A stretch of 63,367 nucleotides of DNA, counting the filler. It is 5 parts of 5 records of this genome, joined end to end, with 100 filler letters (N's around TTAATTAATTAA, not from the genome) between each part and the next. Parts side by side here need not be neighbours in the genome. Positions count along the whole stretch, not along the records: positions 55,251 to 63,367 come from SRR2962707_3364; 4 more parts are not named here. The stretch is one strand, 5' to 3'. The position numbers and the translations under genes were made by a program. Numbering within the stretch: the stretch's first letter is position 1; each line of letters starts with the position of its first letter. This document shows positions 14,381-63,367 of the stretch, in pieces. A model generated the notes under the pieces. That model saw nothing but the letters and a program-made list of their open reading frames with translations. It was not told the origin of the DNA and ran no database searches.

Positions 14381-14404
14381 AGCAAAAAATACCGAGTATT
14401 GACA

Positions 14405-14448
14405 ACTTCCGATTTTTCAACCACAAATGTGGGAGGAAAATCGGAAGT
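14405..14448. promoter_or_regulatory. 44-bp imperfect inverted repeat directly after TTGACA (14399-14404), covering the GGGAGG RBS
   Basis: ACTTCCGATTTT (14405-14416) / AAAATCGGAAGT (14437-14448) with inner CCACA/TGTGG. Confidence 0.7.
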
Positions 14449-31134: not shown

Positions 31135-31234
31135 NNNNNNNNNNNNNNNNNNNNNNNNNNNNNNNNNNNNNNNNNNNNTTAATTAATTAANNNNNNNNNN
31201 NNNNNNNNNNNNNNNNNNNNNNNNNNNNNNNNNN
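31135..31234. other. Artificial contig spacer
   Basis: 100-nt N run with TTAATTAATTAA at 31179-31190. Confidence 0.99.
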
Positions 31235-44589: not shown

Positions 44590-44689
44590 NNNNNNNNNNN
44601 NNNNNNNNNNNNNNNNNNNNNNNNNNNNNNNNNTTAATTAATTAANNNNNNNNNNNNNNNNNNNNNNNNNNNNNNNNNNNNNNNNNNNN
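44590..44689. other. Artificial contig spacer
   Basis: N run with TTAATTAATTAA linker. Confidence 0.99.
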
Positions 44690-44940
44690 CCCCCCCCCCC
44701 CCCCCCCTCTCTGTTTTGGGCGCTTGGTTCTGTGGGTGCCGTGAGGGCGCCTTGCTTTTTTTTCTCTCTTTTTTCTTTCTTTGTCTGCTGGTGGTGGCGC
44801 GTGGTGGGCATTTTATTCGGGCGCATATTTGAGCTCGAGACTTTTGCGCTTGCTCCACTGGTTTGCTTTCATTTCGCTGACCAAGTTTATTCCGCCGTGC
44901 AGGCTGTGCTGCTTTTTGCCAAGAAAAAGTCCTCTCAAGC

Positions 44941-46275: not shown

Positions 46276-46336
46276 AACCTGGCCATCACCGGGCTTTTCT
46301 TTTTACGAGCCCTGCGTGCATTGAGTGAGGGAGTGC

Positions 46337-46362
46337 TTGTGTGTGTGAGTGTGTGTGTGTGT
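46337..46362. repeat. Imperfect (GT)n microsatellite
   Basis: ttgtgtgtgtgagtgtgtgtgtgtgt between convergent eukaryotic genes. Confidence 0.8.
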
Positions 46363-46508
46363 GCGTTCTCCAACGTGTGAGGACGCTCCTCAAGTATTGC
46401 GGCCAGTGATAGTGATTTAGAGACGATAGGACGTGGTTGATTCAGTAACAATGAGTCGATCAGCAAAACTTTTAAATAAGAAGACAAAAACAGACACTCG
46501 CATGCAGC

Positions 46509-49255
46509 TCACAGAAGCAAGTCACTTTCACAAAACACAGTGCTGCAAAAAGGGCAGCAAATGCCTTCTGGCGTGGCAAGGGGATGACTCGCTTGTTTCA
46601 ACTCCTTTCGCGCTGCAGCAGCACTCACCGCCAAACCGCAACCACACGTCCATTGCGGCTGATCCACACGGAGGGGTTTGAATGTGAGAAGGCACCGTGA
46701 TTGCCTGGTCCCGAACTTTGACTGAACCTGCGGCGGCTCGCAAGGAATCGACACCAAGTTTGTCAGCAGCTCTACAGCTTGGCCTGTACCGGCAACCGCT
46801 TGCAGAACTCCCTTTGGTTCAATTCCATCTTGCGGGAGTTGATGCAAAATGCAACGGATCTCAGCTTGCTGTGACGTTGAGACAAGCCCTGACGTGCAAA
46901 GTCCGCTCAGAAAGTCACATACGGGCTGAGGATCGAAGGTGCTGGGGGGAATGGGGCCCTGCAGCGCGCCGACATCTTGCGACGTCACCTGTACTGAAGC
47001 TGCTGTTGAACCAGGAGCGGACAACACTGCCTTCAGCCAGGAGAAAGCGAGTTGTATTAACGACGCAGCGAACTGGGAATCGAACTCTGAGGAAATCCAC
47101 TGGAAGCGACAACGGTGTTCAGGCATAAGAGATGGAAATTGGCAGTGCAGGAACCACTGAACGTGCTCGAACCGTTGAACCCAAGCAAATTCCGATTCGG
47201 AGCTGGATGCGTCTTTGTTGCCACCCCCTTCAACGCCCTGCGCATGTACGGCCGACAAGTCCTGCTTTACGATCTCTAATAGGGTGAACAACTCAAACGT
47301 CAGGGGTGAATCATTGGGGGTACATCCACGCGGCGAAAACGAAGTCGTTCCCGCTGTGCTCTGTCTTCGACGCTGCTGACTGCCGAAACACGCCACCGAA
47401 AGACCGAAATCAGCATCCTCGTTCCTCAAGCGATCGTAAACACGTGCAAAAGCGAAAAGGCTGGCAGAATTGCACAAGGCAAAAGCGCTTTGAGAGCTTG
47501 ACTGTCGGAGCTTGGGCAGGGGCGCACTCGGAGAGCATAAATTCCGCAGCAACGCTCTGAGTCCTGCTATTGTATGTTGATACTTTTCAAACAGCTGAGG
47601 ATAGAGGGTCTGATTGCGAGTCGGAGCAGTCTGCCGAAACAGGTCAACGAAACGGCACCGTTTGGCAGGTCCGGATTCGTCGTTGATGACTGCTGTTCCA
47701 CCTTGATCAGCCTTCGGTTGTTCGGCAGAGTTCATCTGAAAGCCAATCTCGGCGATGTTGTAAACGTGAATTGCACTGTGCAGTGCTTTTCGCCATGGAT
47801 CAATGAGTGCTGTCCTCTTGTGCGCTTGGCGTTGACGGACCAATACGCCCAAAAAAGGCTTGGAGGGTCCTGTCGTGAACGCTGCCATCGCACCAAAAAT
47901 CGGGTTGCCCACATACAACGTTGCGATTGGGTACAACTGCGTAACCGGACTGCCTCCAGCTGCGCTTGATTTTTTTGCGCTGCACTTTCCACTCGATGCA
48001 GAAGCAGAAGTTGCACATTGCTTGACTCGCCAAAACTTGACATTGCCGTCAAGTGATGTTGTTACCAGCGCCATTGAAGTTCGAGCATTTCGATGCTCTG
48101 CCGCAGTTTTAGATTGCGTCGGGGAAAGACGCACCGTTTCAATTCCTGTGATCGGGGAGTTGTGAGCGTGGCAGGTCGCTTCGCGCGAGAGCATGACAAC
48201 TTCAGGCTGCACTTGTGTGTTCCAGGTGCTGAGATGCAGGTCACACCCAAAGCTATGAATGAGGTATTCAATCGTGTTTAGTTCGTTGTCTACTCCATCA
48301 ACGGATTGGCCCCTGGTAAGTGGTAGACTGGTCACCACGAGTTTCGTCGGTGGAGTCATGCCCAATGGGTCTAGCTGCTTTCTGGACATGGAGAACCATT
48401 TTTCTGTTGCCAAACGATGACCACTTTCAACGCTGGAATTTGGCACTGTCGACACAGCCCAACCACAAATATATTCCGCTGTTGAAGCAACAACAAAGGC
48501 ACTCGCCGTGTCATCTCCGCTGCTTCGTCCACGAACAAACTCAATGCAGCTAACGGGGCCTTCTTCAAAAGCACCAATAATACTGTGGCACTGGGCCAAG
48601 TGGTCTCCACTTGCAATTTTCGCTGCATGTGCGTTTGTTCCGGTGATAGACCGGGAGCTCGGACGTCTGTCATAGATGCGGAAGAACAATATATGTCCAT
48701 TTGCAGAAGCTGCTGTAATGATGGCGGATTTTAAATGGCCGGTGGAACCAAGGGCAAGCGGACACCAGCACATGCATGTCAACGCGAGTTCCTTTTCAGA
48801 AGACGAAAGTTTTGAGTTCGCAATCATGTCCCATTCGCGGCTCAGTACGTCAGTGGCGGGGGCGAACACTGCAAATGTGCCGTTCTGATGAAGAGTGGCA
48901 AGGGCGCACTGGGGCGCACCGTGTCAGCGAGTGCAAACATTGCAACAATCACGCGAAGCAACAGCGGTCAAATGGCTGGCTCTTCGAAGTTTGAGCACGC
49001 ATATCGAACAGTACAACCAAGTACAGTCTCCAGTATTTTCAAACACAAACCTCGCCAGGCACAAGTGCCGAGGCAGCACCCCAGCAAGCTTGGATGACGC
49101 CACCAGCATCCACGCTCGGAAGCGGCACCGTGCGACACATGTGCGGTAAAAGACCAAACGCAGGCATCACTGAGCAGTTGCTTTTGCTGTTTCGTTCAAA
49201 AGCTCGATGCATGCCCACAATGGCCACCCACCCCAGCTCAGACACTTGTAGCGAG
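46509..49255 (-). CDS. TFIIIC subunit 4 (GTF3C4/Tfc8)-like WD/beta-propeller protein with C-terminal Zn finger; spliced, start unresolved
   Basis: Intron 48909-49050 (GTTTGT...CTGAC...CAG) joins ACWGAASALVPGE to CALATLHQNG; WD-like TTSLDGNVKFW; C-terminal RCLLT...CGC...CPFC; possible first exon from ATG 49726. Confidence 0.6.
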
Positions 49256-49818
49256 CTGCACAGAAACAATACAATGTCAACACCAACGCCAAGATGAGAT
49301 GTACACAGGTCAAGTGGGACACACCAAATTTGCAAGGGCAATGCGCATCAGCAATTGCAAAAGATCATCGCGCTTGCCTCGGAAATTGGGGCACATTCCT
49401 TGCTGAGGTGCCCAAAACTCCAAGTGGCTGTCCAAAGAACGAACAAACGAAAATACGAAAGAAAGAACGAAAGAAAAAGAAAGAAACAAAGAAAGAAACA
49501 AAGGAAGAAGCAAACCAGGTCCAAAGAATACCACGAAACAGCAGACCAATCGTGAAAAAAAGGGCGCACGAGTTATCACTCAAAGCTCAAACAAATTGTC
49601 CCTGCTCAATTCTTGCGCACGAGCCTGTCGCTGGATGTTCACTACAGCATTAGGTGCTGTTGCATCGCCGTGGCTGCAAGGGGAAGAGTCAGCTGAACGT
49701 CTCTTAGCTCGCGACGGCTCCTCCATGTCCAAAAGTCGCCACGAAGGATGTGCGTCATACACAAACTGAACCCGCAACCCAAACAGCAGCAGCGGCAAAA
49801 ACAAGAAAAAAAAAAAAA

Positions 49819-49918
49819 NNNNNNNNNNNNNNNNNNNNNNNNNNNNNNNNNNNNNNNNNNNNTTAATTAATTAANNNNNNNNNNNNNNNNNNNNNNNNNN
49901 NNNNNNNNNNNNNNNNNN
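49819..49918. other. Artificial contig spacer
   Basis: N run with TTAATTAATTAA linker. Confidence 0.99.
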
Positions 49919-50011
49919 TCCTCCTCCTCTTCCTCCTCCTCCTCCTCTGACTGAAGGAGTACGCGTGTCTTGTGTCACGAACAACAACAGCAGCAACAAG
50001 ACGCGCTCACA

Positions 50012-53000
50012 ATGGCGGGCTCAACCAAGCAGTCAATGGACGCGGAGGCGTTCAACGACCTGGAGCGGAGCTTCACCGAGACTCTGAGCAAGATGTCCGG
50101 GGACGACACTCTGGAAAAGTTCAAGTTCGAGTACGAGAAGCTTTACGAGGCGTTCAAAAAGTCGCACAAAGGTGAGCAGCGCCTCATCACCCGCGTGCGG
50201 GAGCTCAGTGAAGAGATCGTCGAGAATGCCAAGAAAGTGCAGACCGCACTCAAGCTATCGGAGGACGACCAAGTCACGATTCTGGACCTGAAGGAAGAGA
50301 TCAAGAAGGCTTGGAACATGGTCGATGCTGCCCACGAAAAGGAGATGCGCGCCAAAGACACGATCAAGGAACTGCGGAAAGAGATCGACGAGATGACTGT
50401 CCTCATTGAGAAGGGCGCGGGCTTGACGGCAGACCACGAGCAGCAAGTGGAGGTACTCGAGACCAAGCACAGCGACTTGTTGCGCAAGCTGGAGGAGAAG
50501 CAGAAAGAGCTCGAGTCTCATCAAGACGCCATCCAAGGTTTGCACTCGAAGATCAACCGCAAACGTGCCAAGGCCAAGTCGCACAAGGAAACGATTTCCG
50601 AGCAGGCGGAGGTTCTTCGTGAGAAGGAAGCGGAACAACGACGCGAGGCACGCCGCAAGGAGCGTGTGAATCAAGAGCTCACGGAGCTCCGCGTGCGCCT
50701 GGACGAGGCACAGACCCGTGTAAAGCATCTCGAGTCCGTCAACAGCGAAGGCGACCTGTCACGCAAAAAGCTGGAGATCCAGGTCAAGGAGTCGCGTGGG
50801 CAGGTTGACAAGTTCGTCCGTGAGAACAAGATCCTGCTCGGGAAGATGGGGGAGCTGAGCTCGCAGGCGGAAGAGTTGATGCACCGCAATGAATCGCTTC
50901 AAAAAGATATGCTGAAATTGGACTCCGAAATTGTCAACCGTGATCGCACGATCGCACGGCAAAAAGAAGACATGGCTCGTGCCAAGCGCATGCTGGACTC
51001 CGAAAAGAAGCAGACGGGTCGCTTGCAGTCCAAACGTGCGGAAGAAAAGTCGGAGCGTGAGCAGCTCGTCTCGCAAATCAACATGCTCAGCAAGGATACT
51101 ATGCAAGTCCAGCGTGAGGCCGATGCCAAGGCCAAGAAAGTTTCTGAGCTGCAACGCGGCCAAGACATGACGCAGAAACAGGTGCGTGGATGATCAAGTA
51201 CCATGTGACAGGGCAGCAACAGCGATTGTCGCTTTACGTTTCCGTTTCTTCGTTTGTGAAAGCGCCCGGTCATGGTCTTGTGGTTTCGCTGAATGTCATT
51301 CTTCTGTTCGTTTTTTTTTTTTTGTGTAGCTGTTGAAAGAGAAAATGAGGGTCAAGAAGGAAGAAGAAAAAGTTGGGCTTGTCAAGCGCGAAATGGGTCA
51401 ACTCAACAGCGAACTTACAACGTTTGAGCAAGAGGCTCAGAAACAGCGCAAGTTAATCTACAAACTGGACAAGGCTCGTGAAAGGGCCGATGCGGAAGCG
51501 TCAGAGTTCCAAGGCAAATTCCAACAGGCATTGGAGCAGGTTAAATTGAAGGAACGAACTATCGACGAAATGCAGAAGCAGATTCAGGAGCTCACTGCTA
51601 AACTCAAGCAGCAAGAGAACTTGTAAGTGATTTTCTCCAAGACTGAACCCGGGTTCACCATGAAATTGAAATCAGATATTTTTTGCTCACTTGGGACGGA
51701 CGTGAACATCGCGTGACTGACATGCAGGTACGAGGCCGTGCGCTCTGACCGTAATCTGTACAGCAAGAACCTGATTGAGTCGCAAGACGAAATTGCGGAG
51801 ATGAAGCGAAAGTTCAAGATCATGAACCATCAAATCGAACAGCTGAAGGAGGAAATCACTGCGAAGGACCACGCGCTGGTGAAGGAGCATTTCGACCATC
51901 AGAAGGTGGAAAAGCAACGCGAGCAGCTCAAGAATGAGCTTGACAAACTGCGGAAGCTCAAAGGGAAGGCAGAGAGCACAATTGAGAAGCAGCATGCAGA
52001 ACTTGGCAAGCTCACAAGCATCATTCAGAAGTTGGAAAGTGACGCCATTCAACAGCACAAGGAATACGACCAAGTCATCAATGAGCGGGACATTTTGGGC
52101 ACACAACTCATCCGCCGCAATGACGAGCTCGCACTCTTGTGCGTTCCGCTTGTGGTTGCTCTGCGTGGATTGCCGGATCCTATGTTTGCTTCAAGTCGTG
52201 ATTCCCTCCCTTTCATAGCTTTTGCAAGTGCACGTTTTGCTGCTAACGACTGCACGCTGTGTCTGTTGGCGTAGGTACGAGAAGTTGAAGATTCAACAAT
52301 CTACCTTGAACAAAGGTGAGGTGCAGTACTCAAACCGCATCCAAGACATCCGGCTCATGCAACTGCAGGTGCAAGATTTGAGCCGCAAGCTCAAAATTTC
52401 CACAGAGATGGCTTCGCAAGTACCAGAGCTGAAGCGAGAAATCAAGACGAGGTTTGTTGTCTCACAAGTTGTTTGGCCAGTTCACTAAGCATTGCTCTTT
52501 CCTGCTGGCACTTACTCTACCTGGTTGTGTCCACGTTGTCTCTGAAGGTACAAGGAGCTAATTCGTGAGCGCAACAAGGTGACTCGCCTGTCGAACGAGC
52601 TGGAGAACCCAATGAATTTGCACCGATGGCGCCAGCTTGAAGGTTCAGATCCAGAAACACACGAGCTGCTTCAGCGCATCCGCACTCTACAAAAGCGCCT
52701 CATTAAAAAGACAGAGGAAGTGGTGGAGAAAGATTTCGTCATCCAAGAAAAAGAGAAGCTGTACACTGAGCTCAAGAACATTCTGGCTCGCCAACCAGGT
52801 CCCGAAGTCGCGGAGCAGTTGAGCGTGTACGTAGTCGCTTCCAAAAATTCATTCGCACAATTGTCGCCGATTGTCGAACGGTCCACTGCTTTCCACTCGA
52901 TTTGCACTGATGGCTGATGGTTGTGATGTATGCATGCTGTTGTAACGGGCATTTCGACTCAGCTACCAACAATCACTGAAAGACAAGACCCGGCAGATGA

Positions 53001-53287
53001 AGTCGATGGCATCTGAGCTGAACATGTATCAAGCACAAGCCAACGAATACAAATACGAGATTGAGCGCCTAATGCAAGAAGTGCAAGACGTGAAGCGGAA
53101 ATACTATGCTCAAAAGCGCGCCAACAAGCAGCAAAAATTTGCAGCAGGAGGCATGGGCGCACTTGGACTCTCGAGCAAGCGTGGGCCCGCCACTATCCAC
53201 GAGACCAATCAAGCCCAGCAGCAAAGACTTGCTGCGCAGCAAACCGCATCGAGAATGATTGGCGGCGGCTTCAATCTGACGCAGTAA
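50012..53287 (+). CDS. CFAP58: Cilia- and flagella-associated protein 58, 6 exons: 50012-51181, 51330-51622, 51728-52138, 52275-52451, 52548-52826, 52963-53287 (884 aa)
   Basis: Five GT-AG introns restore one frame: LYEAVRSDRNLYSKNL, ERDILGTQLIRRNDELALLYEK, NPMNLHRWRQLEGSDP, LARQPGPE, GGGFNL; exon sum 2655 nt. Confidence 0.9.
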
Positions 53288-53473
53288 TGGTGGGAATGGT
53301 CTTTGTTCGTTTCGCTGCATCTCATTCTATTTTTATCAATAAGTTAGGACCGTACTCTTTTTTCAAGTTTGTTTCAATGATCGGGCTTGCTAGTGCCGCC
53401 ACTCCTGGTGACTCAAAACTGTGACTGTAGGCAACACGAAACGACGATTGACGTGTTGGAAATCCCACGCGTT

Positions 53474-54727
53474 TTAAAAGTCCCAGTCGTCGTTGAAGTC
53501 GTAGTCATCCTCCTTCTCCTCATGAAAGTAAACGGAACCCCTTGGATGTTCATTCTGCAACTCACTGTCGATTTCTTCTTCGTCGTCTGACGCAGCAACG
53601 TCCTCTTCTTCAGAATCCACAGCTTCTTGCTGAAATCTTGACCTTGCCATGCGGTGCATCGGCAGACCGAAAGGATTACTTCGCTGCAAGTTGCGCATCG
53701 CTTGATACCTACCCAAAACGCGGAAAAATGCTTCATGTTGGCGTCTGCCCGAGATGTTCGAACAAATAAAAGAGCAAGGACGTTGGGTTAACAAGGAGTT
53801 GGTTCTACAAACTTTGCAATGCGCTGCAGAATCTGAAACTGTGCTTCTCGATGTGCAGCAACTCGGCGCTGATGAACTTTCCCTTGCACATGCTCAAGCA
53901 GCTGTGCTTCTCGCTTCGAGGCCGACCTCGCTGACGGAGTGTATGAGCAAAATTGACCTGCAGAACGCACAGCATTGCACGTGCAAATTCATCCACACAA
54001 TGGCATGCAGGTGCGCAAGAAGAGCCAACACGCAGTAAGATGGCGTACATGCATGGTGCTGCGGGAGTGTTGGAACTTTGAATCGCAATACGCGATGGGC
54101 AGCCTGAGCACGTCGGTAGGCTGCAGCAAGTCCTGCGTCATTCGCCACTGCAACGCACACGACTCTGTTCGAGCTGGTCGGCGCGGAGCGATGGTGCTGA
54201 GACACTTTTTTGCGGCGCGGTGGTGTCAGCGTATTGAGTCTTTCAGCACGAGCAATGCGTCGACTTCGCAAGTGCGCTTGATGTGATACTAACAGTTGTA
54301 GAACTCGATCGTTGTTGAGAAATACGTGAGCAAGATCTGGAAACGAGAGCGCCAATGTTCTTTGAATTGTTGACAGGCGTAGCGGGAGTGGTACGGATAC
54401 TCTCCGCAAGCCTGGGTACCCCGCAATTTCAAACTTGATTGGAGCTGTTTTGAGAGCCAAAGTTGTGACTTGATTTGGCGGCTCACAATGTCTGCGACTG
54501 TTGGATTGCATGCGTGGAGAAGCTGCTTCAATCTTTGTGCCGCCGTTTAAGAGTCCGTGCCCTCCGTTGCCATGGTGGGAGGCAATGCCGTCACCTTGGC
54601 TGCGCAGTTGCAACGGCCTCGCTTCACGCTCTGTGGCACAACACTCATGCTGCGTCGTTGGTGTGCCTCGAACTTCACTCACTCGCGCTCCATCAATCAC
54701 ATCATCATGCCCTCCAATTGCCGCCAT
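53474..54727 (-). CDS. Unknown eukaryotic protein: PB1-like domain, matrin-type Zn finger, acidic tail; 3 exons 54727-54049, 53957-53813, 53744-53474 (364 aa)
   Basis: Introns 53958-54048 (GTACGC..CAG) and 53745-53812 (GTTTGT..CAG) give one frame; splicing creates CQFC...QLLEHVQGKVH. Confidence 0.55.
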
Positions 54728-55116
54728 AGTAATACTCCTTCCACACTTCCTTCTGTCACTTTTCACGTGTGCCTGCCTGCACCAACGAGCGCCAGTATCG
54801 CAGGATGCCGCTAAAATGTTTGCAACACACACCCCCGACTCTTCTTCTCTCAAGAACCGTCTTTCTTTTTTCATTTTTTGGTGCCAATCCCAAAAAACAC
54901 CATGAAGCAACATGCTAGGACTTCATGCGAAGCGATGGCACTGCACAGGTAGGATGCCGCAGAAAACCGAGCGTGAGCTGGGGGTGGACCGCGAACACAC
55001 ACTTGCCCAGCACACACATCAAATCAGCTTCTAGACTTGACTGACCCGCTTCAAGATGAGGGTCAGCTGGAGTTGCTCTTGCGGAGCAAACTCGAATTCG
55101 TCGATGAGTTGAGGAC

Positions 55117-55150
55117 CCCACCCACCACCACCACCACCACCAGCAGCAGC
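55117..55150. repeat. (CCA)n/(CAG)n microsatellite at contig end
   Basis: cccacccaccaccaccaccaccaccagcagcagc. Confidence 0.75.
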
Positions 55151-55250
55151 NNNNNNNNNNNNNNNNNNNNNNNNNNNNNNNNNNNNNNNNNNNNTTAATT
55201 AATTAANNNNNNNNNNNNNNNNNNNNNNNNNNNNNNNNNNNNNNNNNNNN
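55151..55250. other. Artificial contig spacer
   Basis: N run with TTAATTAATTAA linker. Confidence 0.99.
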
Positions 55251-55436
55251 CTCGGCGGTGATCCAGCCCTGGCCCTTGCCTTTGAGGAAGCGCGGGACAC
55301 CGTCTTCCACGGAGGCGGTGCAGAGCACCTGGGTGTCACCGAACGCCACCAGGACGCTACCCTCGGCATGCTTGGTGTAATGGCGCGTAAAAGACACTTC
55401 ACGCATTTGGTCGGGCGCGCGGCCGGAGGGACGCAT
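55251..55436 (-). CDS. rph: Ribonuclease PH, N-terminal fragment
   Basis: [12 protein letters not shown]...[21 protein letters not shown]...GWITAE. Confidence 0.95.
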
Positions 55437-55709
55437 GGTAGCTCCTTAGGTTCTGATAATGGTATGGGAGGCCCCCATTGTAACGAACCCGCCGGACCCA
55501 TTGCGAGGCGTCACGGTCGATCGGCCCGGATCGCGCCGCGAGGGAGATCGCTACAAGGCCGCTGTGGGAGCCAGCCTTGCTGGCGAATCCCTGAGGGTGC
55601 AGTCCCTTTCGCCAGCGGGGCCGGCTCCTACAATAGCTTCGTCGCTGGCCCACAACTATCGAACACCAATGGTACACTGAGCGCACACGCAATGGCCGAG
55701 GACCCCGTA

Positions 55710-56573
55710 ATGATCCGCAGCATGACCGCTTTCGCCCGTACCGACGGGCACCTCGACGGCGTCGACCTCGCCTGGGAAATCCGCTCGGTGAACCACCGCT
55801 ACCTGGAAATCTCCCCACGCCTGCCCGAAGCCGTACGGACACTGGAGGGCATCGTCCGTGAGCGCTGCCGCAGCCGCCTGGCCCGAGGCAAGCTGGATTT
55901 GACCCTGCGCTATCAGGAAGACGAAGCGGATCCCAATCTGGAGCTCAACGAAGCGCTGGTGAAACGGATCTCCGAAGCAGCTCGCCGGGTGGGCGATCTG
56001 GTGATGCACCCCGGGCAGATCGACCCCTTGGAAGTGCTGCGCTTCCCAGGTGTGCTGAAAACCACCCGGGTGGACCCGGAAGCCCTGCAAAACAAAGCCG
56101 TGGAGCTGCTCGACGAAGCACTGGACAGCCTGTTGGCCACGCGCGAACGGGAGGGGGAACAATTGGCCAAACTGGTGCTGGACCGCCTGACCCTGATCGG
56201 CGAGCAAGTCGTCATCGTCCGCGCCGCCCTGCCCCGCATTCGCGACCACCTGCGCGAACGGCTGCGGCAGCGGGTCGAGGACGTGCTGGAAACCGCTGAC
56301 AACGACCGTCTGGAACAGGAAGTGGTGCTGGCCGCCCAGAAAATGGATGTGGACGAGGAACTGGATCGCCTGGAGGCCCATGTGAAGGAAGTCCGCCGGG
56401 TGGTGGAGAAGGGTGGCCAGGCGGGCCGCCGTCTGGATTTCCTGATGCAGGAACTCAACCGCGAAGCCAACACCCTGGCGTCAAAGTCCATCGACGCCGA
56501 AACCACCGCCGCCGCCGTCGAACTCAAGGTTCTGATCGAGCAGATGCGGGAGCAGATTCAGAATATCGAATAA
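55710..56573 (+). CDS. yicC: YicC/YloC family endoribonuclease
   Basis: MIRSMTAFAR, EIRSVNHRYL, GRRLDFLMQELNREANTLASK, EQMREQIQNIE; divergent from rph; start ATG 55710. Confidence 0.96.
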   Translation: MIRSMTAFARTDGHLDGVDLAWEIRSVNHRYLEISPRLPEAVRTLEGIVRERCRSRLARGKLDLTLRYQEDEADPNLELNEALVKRISEAARRVGDLVMHPGQIDPLEVLRFPGVLKTTRVDPEALQNKAVELLDEALDSLLATREREGEQLAKLVLDRLTLIGEQVVIVRAALPRIRDHLRERLRQRVEDVLETADNDRLEQEVVLAAQKMDVDEELDRLEAHVKEVRRVVEKGGQAGRRLDFLMQELNREANTLASKSIDAETTAAAVELKVLIEQMREQIQNIE

Positions 56574-56730
56574 GGTCCGCCAAGACCTCAATCGCCCTTA
56601 ACCTATTGATCTATATCGATTTTTAGAGCTCACCCGTTGCGTTATCATTGTCCCAGAATACCCTATGCCCACCAATTCTGGTGGGCATCCTGATGGTCAA
56701 GCTCGCAACACCCCCCCTTACCCAGCATGA
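56574..56730 (+). mobile_element. Probable left end (attL) of a yicC-integrated island with an integrase stub
   Basis: TAACCTATTGAT motif, palindrome ATGCCCACCA-attc-TGGTGGGCAT (56665-56688), ATG 56693 MVKLATPPLT resembling P4-type integrase N-termini; no gmk after yicC; composition shift. Confidence 0.45.
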
Positions 56731-57093
56731 ACCCTATAAACATATCGATGCAGTAGACTTTACTTCCGCGTTCCCAAGGCCTGCCTGTAGTGATTGCTTC
56801 TCTACGGTGGAGATCATAAGGTCATTCTTAGCTAGCCCCTCTTGCCAAGGCGCCTTCAAACCGAGACGATAAAAAAATCGCCACTCTGGGTCCGCTTTTG
56901 GAAAGCAAAAACAGGAAACGCACGAGAATCCAATATTGTTAGCCTTCAGTCAACTATCGGCAACTAATGGTGGCGCCACTTTGATTTTGGCTATGATAAG
57001 CGAACCAAGTCTTTTTACTGCTTAGGTATAACCTGTCAATTGTCATATTGTGTCTCATTTTCATTTTCTAAAAATCGAAATTAGTGAACATTG

Positions 57094-60000
57094 ATGACTT
57101 CAAATATTTCTTACCTTCCTGACTACGCTGCATTGAAGAAGCTCGCATCTGCACTTTGGCAGCAGGACAACTCTTATCATGGCGCAGCTGTTATGATAGG
57201 CGCAGGCTTCAGTAGAAGCGCTGCATCCACAGGTGACGCAAACAAAAAACTACCACTTTGGAATGACTTTTCAAATATTCTTGCAAAAGAACTAGGTTCA
57301 GACAGCACCGATCCACTGCGTTTAGCGGAAGAATACTGTGCATACTTTGGACGACAAGCACTCCATGACCTAATCAGAAAAAAGATAAATGATGCCGCTT
57401 GGGTGCCTGGCGAGCTATATAAATCCCTATTGGGACTACCCTGGTCAGAAGTCCTAACCACTAACTGGGATACCTTGCTTGAGCGATCGTCAATTGAGGT
57501 GCATCAGCCTATCTATAACATAGTTTCCAAACAGGCGGATCTTTCCAAAACAAGATCACCACGAATCGTTAAACTACATGGGACCATCGACGTAACTAAA
57601 GATTTAATTTTTACTCAAGAAGATTACCGAAAATATCCTCAAGATCATGCAGCATTTGTTAATTTCTCCCGCCAAGTATTCATAGAAAACGAACTCTGTT
57701 TGTTAGGCTTCTCTGGCGACGACCCCAACTTTTTGCAATGGACTGGATGGGTAAGAGATCACCTAGCAACTCATTCTAGACGCATCTACCTAGTTGGAGC
57801 TTTGGGTCTAAACTCCGCAAAGAGGAAATACCTCGAATCCATAAATGTCGCGCCAATCGACTTAGGAGATTTGGTCACTGACCATGACGAACCAGATACC
57901 AGACACTTCAAAGCAATAGAAATATTTCTTCAGTCCTTACAAGACCTTAAGCCCCAGCAAGACTGGGAATGGAATCCAACGCAACAACAGAGATCGGAAG
58001 AGATTCTCACCAATAAAGCCCGAAGTCCTCAAGATTTTGACTATGCCGCCAAACTACTGGAAGAAAAGCTTCCATTTCTGGAAAAAGACAGGACATCTTA
58101 TCCAGGCTGGTTAGTTTGCCCCTATCAAAAGCGATTCCAGCTGCAAAGTCAGATAAGTAACCCTTGGCCAAATCCAAAGAACTTGTCTGCAATGGAAGAA
58201 AATAATAGAGCTAAGCTCTTATATGAAATCTATTGGATTCACAGTTTAACTTTTGAGGTCATTCAGCCTTGGTTAATCCCGGAGCTTCTAGCAGTATGCA
58301 CTGCCGACAAGCCAAGTATACTAAACCAAAGGCAGCGTTTGGAAATCGCTCTTTTACTTCTGAAAAATACACGCTGGATCGATAGTCCAGAGGCGGAAAG
58401 CATTGCTCAGAAAGCAAGCGTCATATTAGATAAAGGCCAAAGGCACTGGCAAGAAATCAGTGATGAACTTGCCTATCATAATGCCATCTTGGCACGAGAC
58501 CGATTCGACTACGTAGAGGTAGAGAAAAATTTAGAAAAAATCATAAGCGATAAGCCAATTTGGAAATTGAAAAAAGCCTCTTTGCTTGCTGAACTTGGGC
58601 AATTCAAAAAAGGGGAGGTGTTAGTGTCTGAAGCGTATCGAAAGCTTCTTGCCCAATATCGTAATGATCGAAATTCAATTCATGTACTTTCAAATTTGGC
58701 CTGGGCACATTGGTTAATGCGCGGCATTGACTTTTCAGTATTTAGTAACGAATTGAGTGCTTTTCCATCCAACTACCGAGATCGCAGATGTGATCCATGG
58801 GATCACATCGAGAATGCCAGAGATCGTATCTCCAAACAGCTGGAAAAGCAGAAGAAACAACAAGCTATTGAACCCTCATTTAAACCAGGGCGCTATAAAG
58901 ACAACAGTAACACAGCAAGTTTTAGCAATGAATTGCATCCGTTGCTTCTTTTGGAAGGTATTTCCAATACCGTTGGGATGCCATTACGTTGGAATAACAT
59001 CAACTTTCTTGTCGACCATGCAGCTAGGCTTGCCGAACTGGACGACATCGACAACGCCCATCGTTTTGCATTGGCCATACGTTCAGCAAATAGCGATACA
59101 TCAGATGTCCTAAAAAAAGTATTCTCTAGAATTGGAATTGCATGTTTGCCAGAAAGTGATGTGGCTTTTTTGTTGAAGCAGTGCACGCAAGCGATCAACT
59201 ATTGGGTAGAAAAGCGAACAGAGAAATCAGGGGAGACCGGGCATTATGCAATTGATCGTCTGAGGGTTTTTATCGAAGTGCTTGCCCGCATATCTGTACG
59301 TGCAACACCAAAGCAAGCAAAAAACATATTTCGCCTATCCGTATCTCTTGGAAAGAATTCCAGACTACATCATGTTTGGCTGTTTTCTGCAATAAAAAAT
59401 ATGATGGATTTTTCAATAGAAAGCATTCCAGAATCACAACACCATGAAATATTACTAGAGGCATTGTCCTTTCCCCTTCAAACAGAAACCAGTATTGAAC
59501 ACCATGAAAGGTGGGCCAACCCAATTATAAGATTTCCCGGGGAAAGACGACAGAATGCGTCTCTCGATCATCGCATAGATGAAATAATAGATCGAATAAC
59601 GCCATGCTCACCTCAAAGCTCCCCCGCTCTTTTACGCCTTCTTCCTTTGATTGAGAAGGGTTTTCTGAACAAAACGGAAATGGAGAAGATTTCGGAGAAC
59701 GTATGGGGTCACAACCCAGATTTCAAAACTCTTCCCGAAACAGGTTTACTGAAACATGTGCTACTTGAGATCCCCGCACAAGACTCTAATGCTGTCAAAG
59801 TTCTTGTCAGGCATCACCTTTTTGAGGCAAAAGATTCAACATTATTTAACCGGGAAATCCTAGCAGCTATCGCAAATGCTGCACAAGTAGATAATATTAA
59901 GGAGTTTCCGTCAAATAATCAGTCCCTAAATTACTTTGAAAAACTGGTTGCTTGGAGGCCACCGGCAAATGATAAGAAGAGTATTATTTTTTCCATACAA

Positions 60001-60654
60001 GAAGAGCGACAGACAGCTGAATTAATCGGCGAGGTATTGGCCAGATCTGTTGTTCCTGCCATGCCCTCGGAGGCATTGACCGAAGAAAACTTCCAAAAAC
60101 TATGTACCTTCTATTCCGAAGTTGAAATTCCGGAAATTTTGATTGCATTTCCCTATTTCGCTTCTGAAAACAAGGCTTGTTTCGAACCAACGCAGAAATT
60201 GATTAGGCAAGGACTTCAATCGAATGATGCCAACAAATTAGCATATGCATCTTATGCCCTTTTAACATGGAGAACCTTAAAGGAGTCGCCTGTTATTGAA
60301 AATTTAGTATTAAGACTTATCTATCTAGTAGGATCAAATCGCATGGTAGGTTTGCCAGCTCTACTTTGGACTGCCAATCAGATGCATAACAGGCAGTACC
60401 TTACTTCTGAAAGTGTCGAGTCACTAATAGAAATTCTTCCTGTAATATTCGACAACACTGAATATAAGAATATCTCTCTGCTCAGCCGAGAGTCCATTAG
60501 CGTTTCATTCGTGCGCGCAGCGTGTGTCAGGCTAGCCAAAGATATAATGAGAAAGGGAAAAGATCAAAATAGTGAGTTAATTAGGATCTTAAAGGAGGCT
60601 AGGAAGGACACTCTTCCGGAAGTCAGATTCGCTGAGACACGCACGCCAGCCTAA
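57094..60654 (+). CDS. Large SIR2-domain (SIR2_2) protein with long helical C-terminus, DSR-like putative anti-phage NADase
   Basis: MIGAGFS, LTTNWD, IVKLHGT, FTQEDY and LGFSGDDPNF in the first ~280 aa; ~900 aa Leu/Glu-rich helical region; AT-richer than flanks. Confidence 0.85.
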   Translation: MTSNISYLPDYAALKKLASALWQQDNSYHGAAVMIGAGFSRSAASTGDANKKLPLWNDFSNILAKELGSDSTDPLRLAEEYCAYFGRQALHDLIRKKINDAAWVPGELYKSLLGLPWSEVLTTNWDTLLERSSIEVHQPIYNIVSKQADLSKTRSPRIVKLHGTIDVTKDLIFTQEDYRKYPQDHAAFVNFSRQVFIENELCLLGFSGDDPNFLQWTGWVRDHLATHSRRIYLVGALGLNSAKRKYLESINVAPIDLGDLVTDHDEPDTRHFKAIEIFLQSLQDLKPQQDWEWNPTQQQRSEEILTNKARSPQDFDYAAKLLEEKLPFLEKDRTSYPGWLVCPYQKRFQLQSQISNPWPNPKNLSAMEENNRAKLLYEIYWIHSLTFEVIQPWLIPELLAVCTADKPSILNQRQRLEIALLLLKNTRWIDSPEAESIAQKASVILDKGQRHWQEISDELAYHNAILARDRFDYVEVEKNLEKIISDKPIWKLKKASLLAELGQFKKGEVLVSEAYRKLLAQYRNDRNSIHVLSNLAWAHWLMRGIDFSVFSNELSAFPSNYRDRRCDPWDHIENARDRISKQLEKQKKQQAIEPSFKPGRYKDNSNTASFSNELHPLLLLEGISNTVGMPLRWNNINFLVDHAARLAELDDIDNAHRFALAIRSANSDTSDVLKKVFSRIGIACLPESDVAFLLKQCTQAINYWVEKRTEKSGETGHYAIDRLRVFIEVLARISVRATPKQAKNIFRLSVSLGKNSRLHHVWLFSAIKNMMDFSIESIPESQHHEILLEALSFPLQTETSIEHHERWANPIIRFPGERRQNASLDHRIDEIIDRITPCSPQSSPALLRLLPLIEKGFLNKTEMEKISENVWGHNPDFKTLPETGLLKHVLLEIPAQDSNAVKVLVRHHLFEAKDSTLFNREILAAIANAAQVDNIKEFPSNNQSLNYFEKLVAWRPPANDKKSIIFSIQEERQTAELIGEVLARSVVPAMPSEALTEENFQKLCTFYSEVEIPEILIAFPYFASENKACFEPTQKLIRQGLQSNDANKLAYASYALLTWRTLKESPVIENLVLRLIYLVGSNRMVGLPALLWTANQMHNRQYLTSESVESLIEILPVIFDNTEYKNISLLSRESISVSFVRAACVRLAKDIMRKGKDQNSELIRILKEARKDTLPEVRFAETRTPA

Positions 60655-60867
60655 CCATTATTAGCACCAGAAAAAATCCAGCAAAAACGTCATTTTTTAC
60701 ACGTAAATGCCCAAATTAATTTTCCAATATAGTTGCGCGCCAAGTTGACCCAAAGATCTTCTGATCATCCGACACGCATACTGCTATCGTATTCCGGAGT
60801 ATTAATAATTATTCGAGAGGTATAGCGCACTCCAAACGGCAGGATAAGTACGAGCAAGCCTGCCGCC

Positions 60868-62151
60868 CTATCGGCACATCTTGTTCTCTTCCCTTAAACC
60901 AGCAAGTTGGCGGGTAATCAATTCCACAACACGACGGCTCACCCCGAAGTCTCCAGCAACCGAAGCAAAGTCAGTAAGCACATCCACGATTTCGGCAATA
61001 TCCCGTCGCGCCTGCTCCCATTTGCCATAACCCGCACGCTCCGCCAGTGTCTGAATAGCTTTCAACGACGGAATTTTGCCGAAACCGGCATAGGCGGTGG
61101 CGTGCTCCTGGAACGGATGAGGACTAAAGGTCACGTCATAAAAAGGTGCCGGCACCCACTCGCCAGCATCGTCCTGAAGAAAAGCCCAGTTCTTGCTATG
61201 GTCATCCTGATTACAGGCGAACAGGTTGAACATGGCCCGGCGGAACTGAAGTTTACCCACCGCCGGCGACCGGCAAAGGTGACGACTGGCCTTGATCAGG
61301 TCTTCGTAATCCAGACTCGGTGTCCGGAAATCCGCGTCCAACAGGCCACAGGCACTGTGCATGTGAAGACGCCCCGCCTTTTGCGGGTGACTCACCCAGT
61401 CAAACCGTTTCATCCCAAGCCAGGCGCGGGCGCCGCTTTCCTCCGGCGCATCGAACAGCCGCCACTGCGGCGGCTGCAACCCCAGTTTTCCGGCAAGATG
61501 CAGATAGACGGCTTCACAAAGTCCTTCCTCATGACCCAATGGCAGATTCCGCGACGTGAACTTGACCAGCCAGGCCTCATCCCCGGGTTTTGCAACCGTG
61601 TGACAACGATCAGGCGCATCCGGGGACAGGAATAGCTGTGCCTTGGGCCTGGCACCGCCAGAACTGCCCGCTGCCACCAGATCCGCCAGCACGTCCTCCG
61701 TCTGGCCATCGAAAAGCGCCTGCGCCTCCACACCCAGAGCCGCCAGGTCAATATCCCCTGTCGATGCAACCTGATACTCCGAGGTCGGAGAATAGGACAG
61801 CCCCCCCATTCCGGAGGCACCGACAAAGGCCAGGCGATCCATGGCGCTGATCCGGGCAGGGAGAATCCCATGCTGGCGGAACACGCGATCCTGCAACAGA
61901 GAACCCCAGCCGTCGGGCAGGCTGTCCCCGAAAAGACCATGGAGTCCCCTATGCGGCTTTCCGGGGGCAAGCTGCAGCTCTGTGTTTGCCTTTAAACCAA
62001 ACGGTGACAGGTTACCGAACCGCGCCAGATAATCGGCATCGTACTGAAAGAACACGCCCTGTCGGTTCTGCGCCAGCACACCAACCGTAACCGCCTGCCC
62101 CGTTGTCAGCGTACGCGTTACCGTCAGCTTGCGAACTGGCTTAAAGCTCAC
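60868..62151 (-). CDS. hipA: HipA-family Ser/Thr kinase toxin
   Basis: HipA N-domain (VGVL...FQYD...FGDSLPDGWG), P-loop GSSGGARPK, KRFD, NQDDHSKN, PFYDV. Confidence 0.92.
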   Translation of the reverse strand: MSFKPVRKLTVTRTLTTGQAVTVGVLAQNRQGVFFQYDADYLARFGNLSPFGLKANTELQLAPGKPHRGLHGLFGDSLPDGWGSLLQDRVFRQHGILPARISAMDRLAFVGASGMGGLSYSPTSEYQVASTGDIDLAALGVEAQALFDGQTEDVLADLVAAGSSGGARPKAQLFLSPDAPDRCHTVAKPGDEAWLVKFTSRNLPLGHEEGLCEAVYLHLAGKLGLQPPQWRLFDAPEESGARAWLGMKRFDWVSHPQKAGRLHMHSACGLLDADFRTPSLDYEDLIKASRHLCRSPAVGKLQFRRAMFNLFACNQDDHSKNWAFLQDDAGEWVPAPFYDVTFSPHPFQEHATAYAGFGKIPSLKAIQTLAERAGYGKWEQARRDIAEIVDVLTDFASVAGDFGVSRRVVELITRQLAGLREENKMCR

Positions 62152-62428
62152 TGTTCAATACCTCATCAATGCTGGAGGGCATCTCAGCTTCCCCAGGGGA
62201 ATGACGGGTTAACGCATACAGACGGCGCAGATCATCCAGGCTCTGCCAGAGAAACAACAGTTGCCGGAACGAGATCTGTCCGGTGAGTTCAAACTTCTTG
62301 ATGGTGGATGCCGGCACCCCACTACGCTCGGCCAGGGCATCACGGGACAGCCTGGCCTGCTTGCGTAAACGCCGCAGATGAGCAGCAAACGCTTGCTGCA
62401 CATCAATGTCATCAAGAAGAGAGGTCAT
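62141..62428 (-). CDS. hipB: XRE/HipB-like antitoxin-regulator
   Basis: LRRLRKQARLSRDALAERSGVPASTIKKFE HTH; overlaps hipA start. Confidence 0.82.
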   Translation of the reverse strand: MTSLLDDIDVQQAFAAHLRRLRKQARLSRDALAERSGVPASTIKKFELTGQISFRQLLFLWQSLDDLRRLYALTRHSPGEAEMPSSIDEVLNSEL

Positions 62429-62440
62429 TTTACACCACAA

Positions 62441-62520
62441 TAGACACCATGATGTCTAATTATGACCAAAACAAGAACAAATAGATACCATAATAGCCAA
62501 AATAGACCTCATTGGACTGC
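62441..62520. promoter_or_regulatory. Putative HipB-like operator array
   Basis: TAGAC-N8-GTCTA palindrome 62441-62458; degenerate copies at 62482 and 62503. Confidence 0.55.
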
Positions 62521-62532
62521 GGACAATACCGC

Positions 62533-63367
62533 TCAACCAAACCTTTCAGGCAGGAACAGAATCAGATCCGGCACGCCCATCAACAGCAACAGCACCAGGG
62601 CGTCCATCATCAGGAACCAGAACACGCCCTTGAAGATGGCGCTGGTGGATACCAGGTCACCGACCACGCTCTTTATCACGAAGATGTTCATGCCCACCGG
62701 CGGCGTCACCATGCCCACTTCCAACAGCTTGGTCAGTACCACACCGAACCAGATCAGGCTGAGGCCGGCGCTGTCGATGATCGGCAGGACGATGGGCAGG
62801 GTCAGCAGCATGGCGCCGATGGGTTCCAGAAACATGCCCAGCAACAGATAAACGCAGACGATGATCAGCAAAATCGCCATGGTATCGGCGCCGGCGTCCA
62901 GTACCAGCGAGGACAGGTAATCACCAGCGCCGGATAAGGACAAGAAGCGCGTCAGCAAACTGGCGCCCATGGCGATGATCAGCAGGGTGCCGGTGGTCAG
63001 CAGGGTTTCCTGTATCGCCGCGCGAAACCGGCTCCAGGTCAGGGTGCGTTTGCACAGCGCCACAACACAGGACAGCGCGGCGCCTACCGCACCGGCCTCC
63101 GTGGGCGTGAACAATCCGGCGAACATGCCGCCGAAGATGCCCATCATGATCAGCAGGATCGGCCAGATATCCCACAGCGCCGCCACTTTCTCTTTCAGTG
63201 ACACGCGCGAATCGGTACGCGGCGCCAGCGACGGATCCAGCTTCACCCGTATCATCACCACCGCGATGTAACCCGCCACGGTAATCAGGCCGGCGGCGAT
63301 CCCGCCCAGAAACAGCTTGCTGATCGATTGCTGCGCGATGATGCCGTAAAGAATCATGATGATGGAC
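62533..63367 (-). CDS. dctM: TRAP transporter large permease DctM, 5'-truncated
   Basis: GLFTPTEAG, LGMFLEP, GMVTPPVGMN. Confidence 0.93.
   Translation of the reverse strand, partial: SIIMILYGIIAQQSISKLFLGGIAAGLITVAGYIAVVMIRVKLDPSLAPRTDSRVSLKEKVAALWDIWPILLIMMGIFGGMFAGLFTPTEAGAVGAALSCVVALCKRTLTWSRFRAAIQETLLTTGTLLIIAMGASLLTRFLSLSGAGDYLSSLVLDAGADTMAILLIIVCVYLLLGMFLEPIGAMLLTLPIVLPIIDSAGLSLIWFGVVLTKLLEVGMVTPPVGMNIFVIKSVVGDLVSTSAIFKGVFWFLMMDALVLLLLMGVPDLILFLPERFG

Follow-up and report, generated by a model that had tools for sequence, protein, structure and literature searches.

A horizontally acquired SIR2 gene of the DSR2 family as a candidate one-protein abortive-infection system

What does a gene for a large, solitary sirtuin contribute to a bacterium, and does it represent a new kind of defence or a known one? 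This question is raised by a SIR2 gene (positions 57094-60654, plus strand) that encodes 1186 amino acids (aa) in a composite stretch of 63,367 nt, filler included (hereafter the window). A preliminary description had regarded it as a stand-alone, DSR-like sirtuin acting as a single-gene abortive-infection NADase (NAD+ glycohydrolase), possibly in a distinct subfamily. We conclude that the gene was acquired horizontally and belongs to the known DSR2 family, so that it does not represent a new system. Matches to Dsr2 profiles, the predicted structure, the catalytic asparagine and histidine and the gene neighbourhoods of homologues support the idea of a stand-alone sirtuin of this type, and we consider it probable, with good confidence, that the product works as a one-protein abortive-infection system with putative NADase activity. 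The NADase activity itself, the protection against phages, the state of assembly and the nature of the trigger are inferences.

The gene consists of a single open reading frame (ORF) that starts at 57091 (TTG) or 57094 (ATG) and ends at 60654 on the plus strand. We prefer the ATG, which yields 1186 aa plus stop, because an identical database protein (P0002, 1186 aa) exists and the N-termini of the homologues fit this start. Its features are the following:

57094-60654, plus strand: DSR2-family gene (PADLOC Dsr2, E 1.2e-141; P0002 identical)
57094-57963, plus strand: N-terminal SIR2 domain of the NADase type, residues 1-290 (Pfam SIR2_2, structure models)
57199-57213, plus strand: GAGFS, residues 36-40, glycine-rich NAD-binding loop by analogy
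57457-57471, plus strand: TTNWD, residues 122-126; N124 aligns with the catalytic N133 of Bacillus subtilis DSR2
57571-57582, plus strand: KLHG, residues 160-163; H162 aligns with the catalytic H171 of B. subtilis DSR2
57706-57729, plus strand: GFSGDDPN, residues 205-212, fourth SIR2 motif
57964-58953, plus strand: middle helical region, TPR-like, residues 291-620, aligning collinearly in structure with the B. subtilis DSR2 MID region
58954-60651, plus strand: C-terminal alpha-solenoid (HEAT/ARM-like), residues 621-1186, presumed sensor, column conservation 0.36

The family was assigned by profile searches. The PADLOC model Dsr2 (PDLC02184) aligned residues 14-1184 with profile positions 12-1216 of 1222 (E 1.2e-141, 472 bits), and the NCBIfam model Dsr2 (NF041819) aligned residues 15-1184 with positions 8-1212 of 1215 (E 6.6e-140, 468.2 bits). 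The PADLOC runners-up, ThsA and LmuA, covered the SIR2 part alone (residues 30-235 in the case of ThsA), and no family named Dsr1 was present among the nine PADLOC families matched at E ≤ 1 or in NCBIfam at the same threshold. At the profile level, these sequence matches establish membership of the DSR2 family. A full-length match to a characterised system had been named in advance as the result that would remove novelty, and with PADLOC Dsr2 it was largely found. The suggestion of an unrecognised subfamily fails because the PADLOC Dsr2 profile covers the whole protein and DSR2 chains head the structural matches; what stands of it is the remoteness from the named proteins (468 versus 1400 bits, 25% identity).

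The named example is Dsr2 of the Clostridium tyrobutyricum plasmid pCTK01 (WP_017895821.1, 1246 aa), to which BLASTP aligned query residues 15-1058 collinearly at 25% identity over 1139 columns (E 2e-74). The group behind the PADLOC and NCBIfam models resembles the SIR2-gene product in its length class (~1190-1250 aa) and in having a long helical region after the SIR2 head; it differs in that the identity to the named example is just 25% and the score 468 bits versus a cut-off of 1400. The pCTK01 dsr2 gene lies on a mobilizable plasmid beside a RelE/ParE pair and recombinases, and the trait that it shares with the present gene is that of being a single gene.

The catalytic set of the SIR2 domain is intact, as had been described, since GAGFS, TTNWD, KLHG and GFSGDDPN were all located in the 1186-aa ORF. 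Among 59 and among 113 diverse homologues, G36 and G38 of the first motif, T123, N124 and D126 of the second and K160, L161 and G163 of the third were invariant, with H162 present in at least 90%; in the fourth motif, G205, F206, S207, D210 and N212 were invariant among homologues. The phmmer alignment with B. subtilis DSR2 pairs N124 with N133 and H162 with H171, two residues whose mutation abolished defence according to a preprint (Garb et al., 10.1101/2021.12.14.472415). SIR2_2 was the only Pfam match at E ≤ 1 (residues 120-256, E 4.3e-21). Mean column conservation over 112 homologues was 0.62 in the SIR2 head versus 0.36-0.37 elsewhere, and a conserved head with a variable remainder is what would be expected if a constant effector were coupled to a sensor that diversifies.

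Structural comparison was made with DSR2 of B. subtilis 29R, a protein of 1005 aa (CHARACTERISED Bacillus DSR2; PDB 8k98, 8wyb, 8z18, 8wy8 and others). Model 1, a full-length AlphaFold model from a shallow alignment of 25 close sequences, had a predicted local distance difference test score (pLDDT) of 72.7, with values below 50 over much of residues 1-300, a confident stretch at 310-1187 and values mostly of 80-95 at 621-1186. Model 2 comprised residues 1-620, was computed by AlphaFold from 59 diverse homologues and reached a pLDDT of 89.4 and a predicted template modelling score (pTM) of 0.79; the mean pLDDT of its SIR2 domain (residues 1-290) was 89. In the two models residues ~300-1186 were all-helical, in agreement with the helical tail of ~900 aa proposed in the preliminary description. 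In a Foldseek search with model 2, the matches listed at ranks 1-41 were all B. subtilis DSR2 chains (E 1e-13 to 1e-11), and the first listed match of another kind, at rank 42, was ThsA. VIA-align gave the following matches for model 2 (rmsd, root mean square deviation):

8wyb_C (DSR2): Z 29.8, rmsd 5.3, 446 aligned, model 6-620 versus chain 22-592
8z18_A (DSR2): Z 28.9, rmsd 5.8, 464 aligned, model 6-620 versus chain 23-592
8wyc_C (DSR2, SIR2-only chain): Z 29.8, rmsd 2.5, 264 aligned, model 6-287 versus chain 22-298
7uxt_A (ThsA): Z 26.1, rmsd 2.5, 252 aligned, model 7-286 versus chain 2-279

The SIR2 head and the middle (MID) domain have the same fold and order as in B. subtilis DSR2; the middle region taken alone matched TPR proteins (Z 9-11). 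The SIR2-gene product differs from the Bacillus protein in being 181 residues longer, and the hosts belong to different phyla. For model 1, the initial Foldseek and VIA lists held generic solenoids alone, with no DSR2 chain among the matches listed, and a C-terminal DSR2 match came up only in a wide VIA search. Here, 8k98_C (Z 11.2, rmsd 5.2, 388 aligned) paired model residues 451-896 with chain residues 381-874, and 8ygk_A (Z 11.1, rmsd 4.8) paired 429-897 with 408-874. The 8ygk_A alignment and those of model 2 share one register, the chain number running 21-28 below the model number at residues 429, 620 and 897, which supports collinear homology to about residue 897. The last ~290 residues resemble importin-beta and further ARM/HEAT solenoids (Z 15-16), with Z 15.5-15.8 for importin-beta on residues ~825-1187 of model 1. 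A HEAT-like C-terminal solenoid has been described for DSR2 (PMC11850899).

Two other defence systems share the SIR2 head. ThsA of Thoeris systems (PDB 7uxt, 8bto, 6lhx, 8wc0) comes closest in the sequence of its SIR2 domain (E 8.7e-11 to 6e-13) and, likewise of the NADase type, is nearly as close as DSR2 by structure (Z 26, 25% identity). The likeness ends with the SIR2 domain (PADLOC residues 30-235): the C-terminal ligand-binding domain of the ThsA type has no counterpart in the SIR2-gene product, whose C-terminus is an alpha-solenoid, and no model for the Thoeris protein ThsB was matched by the five ORFs neighbouring the SIR2 gene. SIR2-STAND (Avs5; PDB 9jap, 9nc9) likewise carries its SIR2 effector head on the same polypeptide as a large sensor region (Z 19-20). 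Because of the high rmsd (~24) this similarity is essentially that of the SIR2 head alone and, unlike in SIR2-STAND, no NTPase domain was detected in the SIR2-gene product by Pfam, PADLOC or NCBIfam.

The same comparisons bear on whether the gene might encode a housekeeping NAD-dependent protein deacylase or a regulatory sirtuin, which we consider most improbable. Although several homologues carry the NCBI name 'SIR2 family NAD-dependent protein deacylase' and the fold is common to classical sirtuins (Z 12-14), Pfam detects SIR2_2 rather than the classical SIR2 family, and the best structural relatives are the immune NADases DSR2, ThsA, KomC and Avs5. Classical sirtuins bind zinc through CxxC cysteine pairs, and the first 300 residues contain no such pair. 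The foreign composition of the gene, its distribution (5 of 201 genomes) and the defence-rich neighbourhoods, all presented below, likewise speak against a housekeeping enzyme and are in line with a DSR2-like defence protein.

For the neighbourhoods, we took the 20 closest of 80 fetched genome loci (drawn from at least 564 matching stretches and numbered L001 onwards), with three ORFs per side and 105 ORFs in total; PADLOC counts at the homologue loci were tallied by hand. The matched control was yicC in 20 metagenome loci (119 ORFs), analysed with the same ORF caller and design. At E ≤ 1e-50, PADLOC models matched 34 of the 105 ORFs around the homologues, spread over 11 of the 20 loci, versus 3 of the 119 control ORFs in 2 of the 20 loci (Fisher p 5.8e-10 per ORF and 0.0057 per locus). 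In this defence-neighbourhood scoring, one of the checks proposed beforehand, strong defence matches were commoner around the homologues than in the control; the present copy, on an 8.1-kb contig, has only a hipBA toxin-antitoxin pair beside it and no PADLOC match among its neighbours. In L001, L002, L010, L012 and L019 the homologue is enclosed by a cassette of the type III restriction-like kind, made up of a DrmD-like SNF2 helicase, Mod, Res and either PDC-S02 or PDC-S05. Neighbours at other loci were PifA (L011), AbiU, an ATPase and a methylase (L013), a TerY-PP2C-kinase triad (L015), a ThsB-like TIR protein (L009) and Ppl-like, LmuA-like and E1-E2/JAB proteins (L020). A tblastn search with HipA and HipB, the products of the genes adjoining the SIR2 gene in the window, found no match at E ≤ 1e-10 in the 80 homologue loci. 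The SIR2 gene has no fixed partner, as the neighbours vary over the 20 loci, cassette genes occur in 6 of the 80, and HipA/HipB are unmatched in the 80.

The cassette suggests a different explanation, in which the SIR2 protein is a component of a multi-gene restriction-like system (SNF2 helicase, Mod methylase, PD-(D/E)xK-like protein and Res) and is here an orphan, maybe inactive or acting differently alone. We consider this unlikely. The gene does stand inside the cassette in 6 of the 80 loci (L001, L002, L010, in part L012, L019 and L022), a DrmD-like fragment occurs additionally in L013, and the ends of the homologue overlap the adjoining genes in L001 and L002; most loci, however, have other neighbours or none. 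Four cassette-borne proteins are among the closest relatives (70-71% identity), yet the cassette copies form a tight clade of their own (support 100), with the SIR2-gene product outside it together with the stand-alone L003 and L005, and according to a quick tree the cassette link arose at least twice. Moreover, the ORF is intact, its catalytic residues are conserved, and DSR2 was reported to be active as a single gene (Garb et al. preprint, 10.1101/2021.12.14.472415).

Two arrangements at these loci are described here as observations in their own right. In L001 (6065-19250) the cassette has the order PDC-S02, DrmD-like SNF2 helicase, SIR2 gene, type III Mod, PDC-S05/PDC-S02 and type III Res; the same type was seen in L002, L019 and L022, and a variant form in L010 and L012. 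The cassette-borne SIR2 relatives are 57-71% identical to the SIR2-gene product, and the cassette is common to bacteria of different families. The cassette may represent a composite system in which a DSR2-like protein supplies the NADase arm. In two genera of Pasteurellaceae (L007, 7699-17079; L008, 7679-17007) the homologue separates cas3 from cas5c-cas8c-cas7c in a type I-C clustered regularly interspaced short palindromic repeats (CRISPR)-Cas system.

How did such a gene arrive at this locus? Its homologues are numerous, patchy in distribution and horizontally transferred. A word-index search returned 497 proteins, the best 120 of which were all ~1150-1220 aa long and 56-72% identical, with SIR2_2 as the sole Pfam domain. 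Among representatives of 50%-identity clusters, a profile search found 6205 at E ≤ 1e-3 and 1374 at E ≤ 1e-30, the best 150 being mostly full length, and a scan of GTDB species genomes gave at least 564 matching stretches among 600 candidates. Of 201 species genomes sampled from a single bacterial family, 5 had a match at E ≤ 1e-50. The gene tree, from a quick IQ-TREE search, mixes bacterial families and contains a well-supported 7-member clade of the SIR2-gene product with proteins of Vreelandella, a Pseudomonas metagenome-assembled genome (MAG), Halomonas, Methylobacillus, Mesopusillimonas and a Rhodocyclaceae MAG. Among plasmids, 6 of 72,556 records matched at one place over 80% or more of the query; a single one of 50,697 phage records had a match, limited to the SIR2 part.

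The closest relatives of the SIR2-gene product (68-72% identity) belong to Halomonadaceae, Methylophilaceae, Alcaligenaceae, Rhodocyclaceae and Pseudomonas, whereas the flanking YicC points to Alcanivoracaceae, its nearest named relatives in a YicC homologue search, with at most 77% identity. The gene has a GC content of 0.422 overall and of 0.388 at third codon positions (GC3), versus 0.635 and 0.785 for yicC and 0.60 and 0.825 for the dctM fragment, so that it is indeed richer in AT than both genes, as the preliminary description had stated. A foreign origin of the gene follows from the difference in GC3 between it and its flanks, from the families of its relatives as compared with those of YicC, and from the 5/201 distribution.

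The window itself is made up of five contigs joined by four N44-TTAATTAATTAA-N44 linkers (31135-31234, 44590-44689, 49819-49918 and 55151-55250); the GC contents of the pieces are, in order, 0.496, 0.555, 0.527, 0.514 and 0.507. Because the contigs were joined artificially, gene order across the linkers has no meaning. The SIR2 gene lies on the last piece (55251-63367, 8.1 kb), so that its vicinity amounts to ~1.8 kb upstream and 2.7 kb downstream. This piece and the linker to its left have the following features:

55151-55250, no strand: artificial linker N44-TTAATTAATTAA-N44; the DNA on its left is not contiguous with the SIR2-gene contig
55710-56573, plus strand: yicC, host-like core gene, left flank (Pfam YicC-like_N and YicC-like_C; GC3 0.785)
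56574-57093, no strand: low-GC (0.45) intergenic stretch of 520 bp upstream of the SIR2 gene, left end of the insert
60655-60867, no strand: low-GC (0.42) spacer of 213 bp between the convergent stop codons of the SIR2 gene and hipA
60868-62151, minus strand: hipA, 427 aa, intact (Pfam HipA_C 3.2e-36, Couple_hipA 1e-11; GC3 0.64)
62141-62440, minus strand: hipB-like helix-turn-helix gene, 99 aa, overlapping and upstream of hipA (HTH_31 8e-9; GC3 0.59)
62533-63367, minus strand: fragment of dctM (tripartite ATP-independent periplasmic transporter), cut by the window end, right flank (Pfam DctM 2.3e-49; GC3 0.825)

A longer ORF starting at 55368 was rejected as yicC, the true gene being 55710-56573. 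A terminator-like hairpin lies at 60861-60876, in the spacer between the SIR2 gene and hipA. An Rfam scan of the contig, upstream stretch included, gave no match at E ≤ 0.1. The hipB/hipA type II toxin-antitoxin pair directly downstream of the SIR2 gene, in convergent orientation, is the sole accessory neighbour on the contig. The interval thus holds two modules of differing composition, the SIR2 gene (GC3 0.39) and hipBA (GC3 0.59-0.64); hipA and hipB (0.64 and 0.59) thus fall between the SIR2 gene and its host-like flanks, a hint that hipBA was acquired separately. We regard hipBA as context and not as part of the SIR2-gene system. Of the yicC-linked island that had been proposed, the low-GC insert is real; within the 8.1-kb contig it is a ~6-kb accessory interval between two host-like genes, holding the SIR2 gene and hipBA alone. 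No tRNA gene was found in the window and no integrase on the 8.1-kb contig, and flanking direct repeats around the insert were not convincing, with just 14-15-nt two-copy matches. The yicC loci of the metagenome scan were relatives of 43-56% identity alone, none with dctM or a SIR2 gene nearby. In Luteibacter rhizovicinus (L053, 16665-17525), yicC lies ~3 kb downstream of a distant SIR2 homologue; this second yicC-adjacent copy is possibly due to chance.

The toxin-antitoxin pair introduces a further alternative, namely that the protein is a DSR2-like sensor-NADase directed at a non-phage target, such as plasmids or other mobile elements, or serving, together with hipBA, as a module for addiction or stress-induced death. 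Besides the adjoining hipBA, the NCBI-named dsr2 on a mobilizable plasmid beside a RelE/ParE pair and recombinases could be cited for it. A joint module is at odds with the lack of HipA/HipB matches in the 80 homologue loci, and the neighbours found elsewhere are classical anti-phage systems (CRISPR-Cas, restriction-modification, PifA, AbiU). Full-length homologues are, in addition, rare on plasmids (the 6 of 72,556 records mentioned above). A non-phage target therefore appears improbable to us, and an anti-phage one-protein system remains the favoured interpretation.

Several observations weigh against that interpretation. The score of 468 bits is far below the curated equivalog cut-off of 1400 of the NCBIfam Dsr2 model; NCBI's rule would hence not name the protein Dsr2, making it a family-level relative outside a narrow equivalog group. 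This cut-off was reached by none of 40 diverse relatives (349-549 bits), which identifies the named equivalog group as a narrow branch and places the SIR2 gene in a much larger unnamed sister radiation. The database labels of the relatives are merely 'SIR2 family protein' or 'deacylase'. With the B. subtilis DSR2 chains, phmmer similarity was limited to residues 75-276 (E 2.6e-6) and that of a 25-sequence profile to residues 75-222 (E 2.8e-9), and neither method detected sequence similarity past the SIR2 domain. The earlier impression that the C-terminus does not resemble DSR2 thus holds for the Bacillus protein; it does not hold for the Dsr2 profile, which aligns residues 14-1184. The C-terminal structural matches to DSR2, with Z ~11 and ranks 41-42 after generic solenoids, fall in a grey zone for helical repeats, and residues 898-1186, the last ~290, have no aligned DSR2 counterpart.

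Further such points concern the neighbourhoods and the locus. At the loose threshold of E ≤ 1e-10, the yicC control also matched 21 of 119 ORFs in 14 of 20 loci; these were chiefly weak generic matches, to PDC-S33 by ORFs judged SpoT-like from size and position and to PD-T4-6 by kinases. In a cruder control, the 39 ORFs on the other bacterial contigs of the window gave four matches at E ≤ 1e-10, two of them the Rosmerta pair described below. The neighbourhood test drew on 20 of the 80 fetched loci, and these are not independent, with L001, L002 and L019 sharing the cassette and L007 and L008 the CRISPR context. The contig that carries the SIR2 gene is merely 8.1 kb long, and no sigma-70-like or other promoter-like site was found on the plus strand of the upstream stretch 56574-57093. 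PADLOC gave no match at E ≤ 1e-10 for the five neighbouring ORFs (hipA, hipB, yicC, the dctM fragment and a 74-aa ORF). As no model was matched, none for HerA, pAgo or ThsB was, which bears out the statement in the preliminary description that such partners are missing nearby, that is, on the 8.1-kb contig. Finally, a literature search of titles and abstracts yielded no experimentally tested member of the ~1185-aa proteobacterial clade.

If the protein is a one-protein abortive-infection system, as we favour, it would work with a SIR2 NAD+ glycohydrolase head (residues 1-290, with N124 and H162 as the predicted catalytic residues), a TPR-like region (~291-620) and a HEAT/ARM-like solenoid (~621-1186). 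If it behaves like B. subtilis DSR2, its SIR2 head would be held in check by the helical middle and solenoid regions until a phage protein produced in the infected cell binds the solenoid; the released head would then hydrolyse cellular NAD+, and the cell would arrest or die before completion of the phage cycle. On this reading the gene came in by horizontal transfer as a self-contained module that was inserted between yicC and the hipBA/dctM segment of an Alcanivoracaceae-like gammaproteobacterium.

In PMC11850899 and the abstracts surveyed, the mechanism of sensing followed by NAD+ loss is demonstrated just for B. subtilis DSR2. In the same literature, the Bacillus protein is the only one known to be activated by the SPR tail tube protein, inhibited by DSAD1 and assembled as a tetramer. 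The trigger of the present protein need not be a tail tube protein and may well differ from that of B. subtilis DSR2, because the sensor region lacks detectable sequence similarity to the Bacillus protein and the solenoid is longer. As a tentative proposal, in which our confidence is limited, the ~1185-aa proteobacterial clade, with its importin-beta-like C-terminal solenoid, sequence-unrelated to and ~180 residues longer than that of B. subtilis DSR2, might be a functionally distinct DSR2 branch that senses a phage component other than the siphovirus tail tube and that was, in some lineages, recruited as the NADase arm of type III restriction-like cassettes and type I-C CRISPR-Cas loci.

As it stands, the finding is ordinary. 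Its use for annotation is that a clade labelled 'SIR2 family protein' or 'NAD-dependent protein deacylase' includes a gene better read as a DSR2-family defence candidate. In addition, at least two lineages go by the name DSR2, namely the ~1200-aa group captured by the PADLOC and NCBIfam models and the 1005-aa Bacillus protein; the mechanistic DSR2 data in the literature surveyed come from the latter. At E ≤ 0.01, phmmer found no DSR2-chain match for pCTK01 Dsr2 or for two Bacillus/Priestia plasmid SIR2 proteins of 1150-1250 aa, and the latter two match ThsA-type chains. Given the missing DSR2-chain match of pCTK01 Dsr2, the name is applied to lineages that stay unconnected in simple sequence searches. 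For the pCTK01 protein (L081, 5953-9693), the phmmer matches were ThsA, KomC and other sirtuin chains alone. Two further Bacillus plasmid matches were considered as a sequence bridge to DSR2 and rejected, being Thoeris ThsA-TIR pairs. The remaining interest lies in the trigger of the clade and in the fact that close relatives are repeatedly found inside restriction-like cassettes and CRISPR-Cas loci; if the trigger differs from the tail tube protein, this would widen the view of phage recognition by one-protein sirtuin sensors.

Other contigs of the window carry unrelated features. Matches to eukaryote-type cilia genes were noticed upstream of the SIR2 gene: the C-terminal EF-hand of EFHB (1.1e-18) and CFAP77 at 44941-46275 (plus strand; contig 44690-49818), and the CFAP58 coiled coil at 51333-51626 and 51738-52274 (plus strand, 1.2e-46 and 2.6e-11; contig 49919-55150). 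They were rejected as part of the island, since the N linkers put them on other contigs. Their nearest ESM Atlas cluster is eukaryotic, with Ciliophora as the commonest phylum (score 0.94), and reading with genetic code table 6 did not lengthen the ORFs. These two contigs look like protist contigs in a bacterial assembly or bin and not like gene transfer beside the SIR2 gene. On the first contig, overlapping genes at 14399-15088 and 15085-16212 (plus strand) form a Rosmerta pair (PADLOC RmrT 3.3e-38 and RmrA 1.8e-130) within a local GC dip (0.456 at 14-16 kb), a second defence candidate on a contig different from that of the SIR2 gene.

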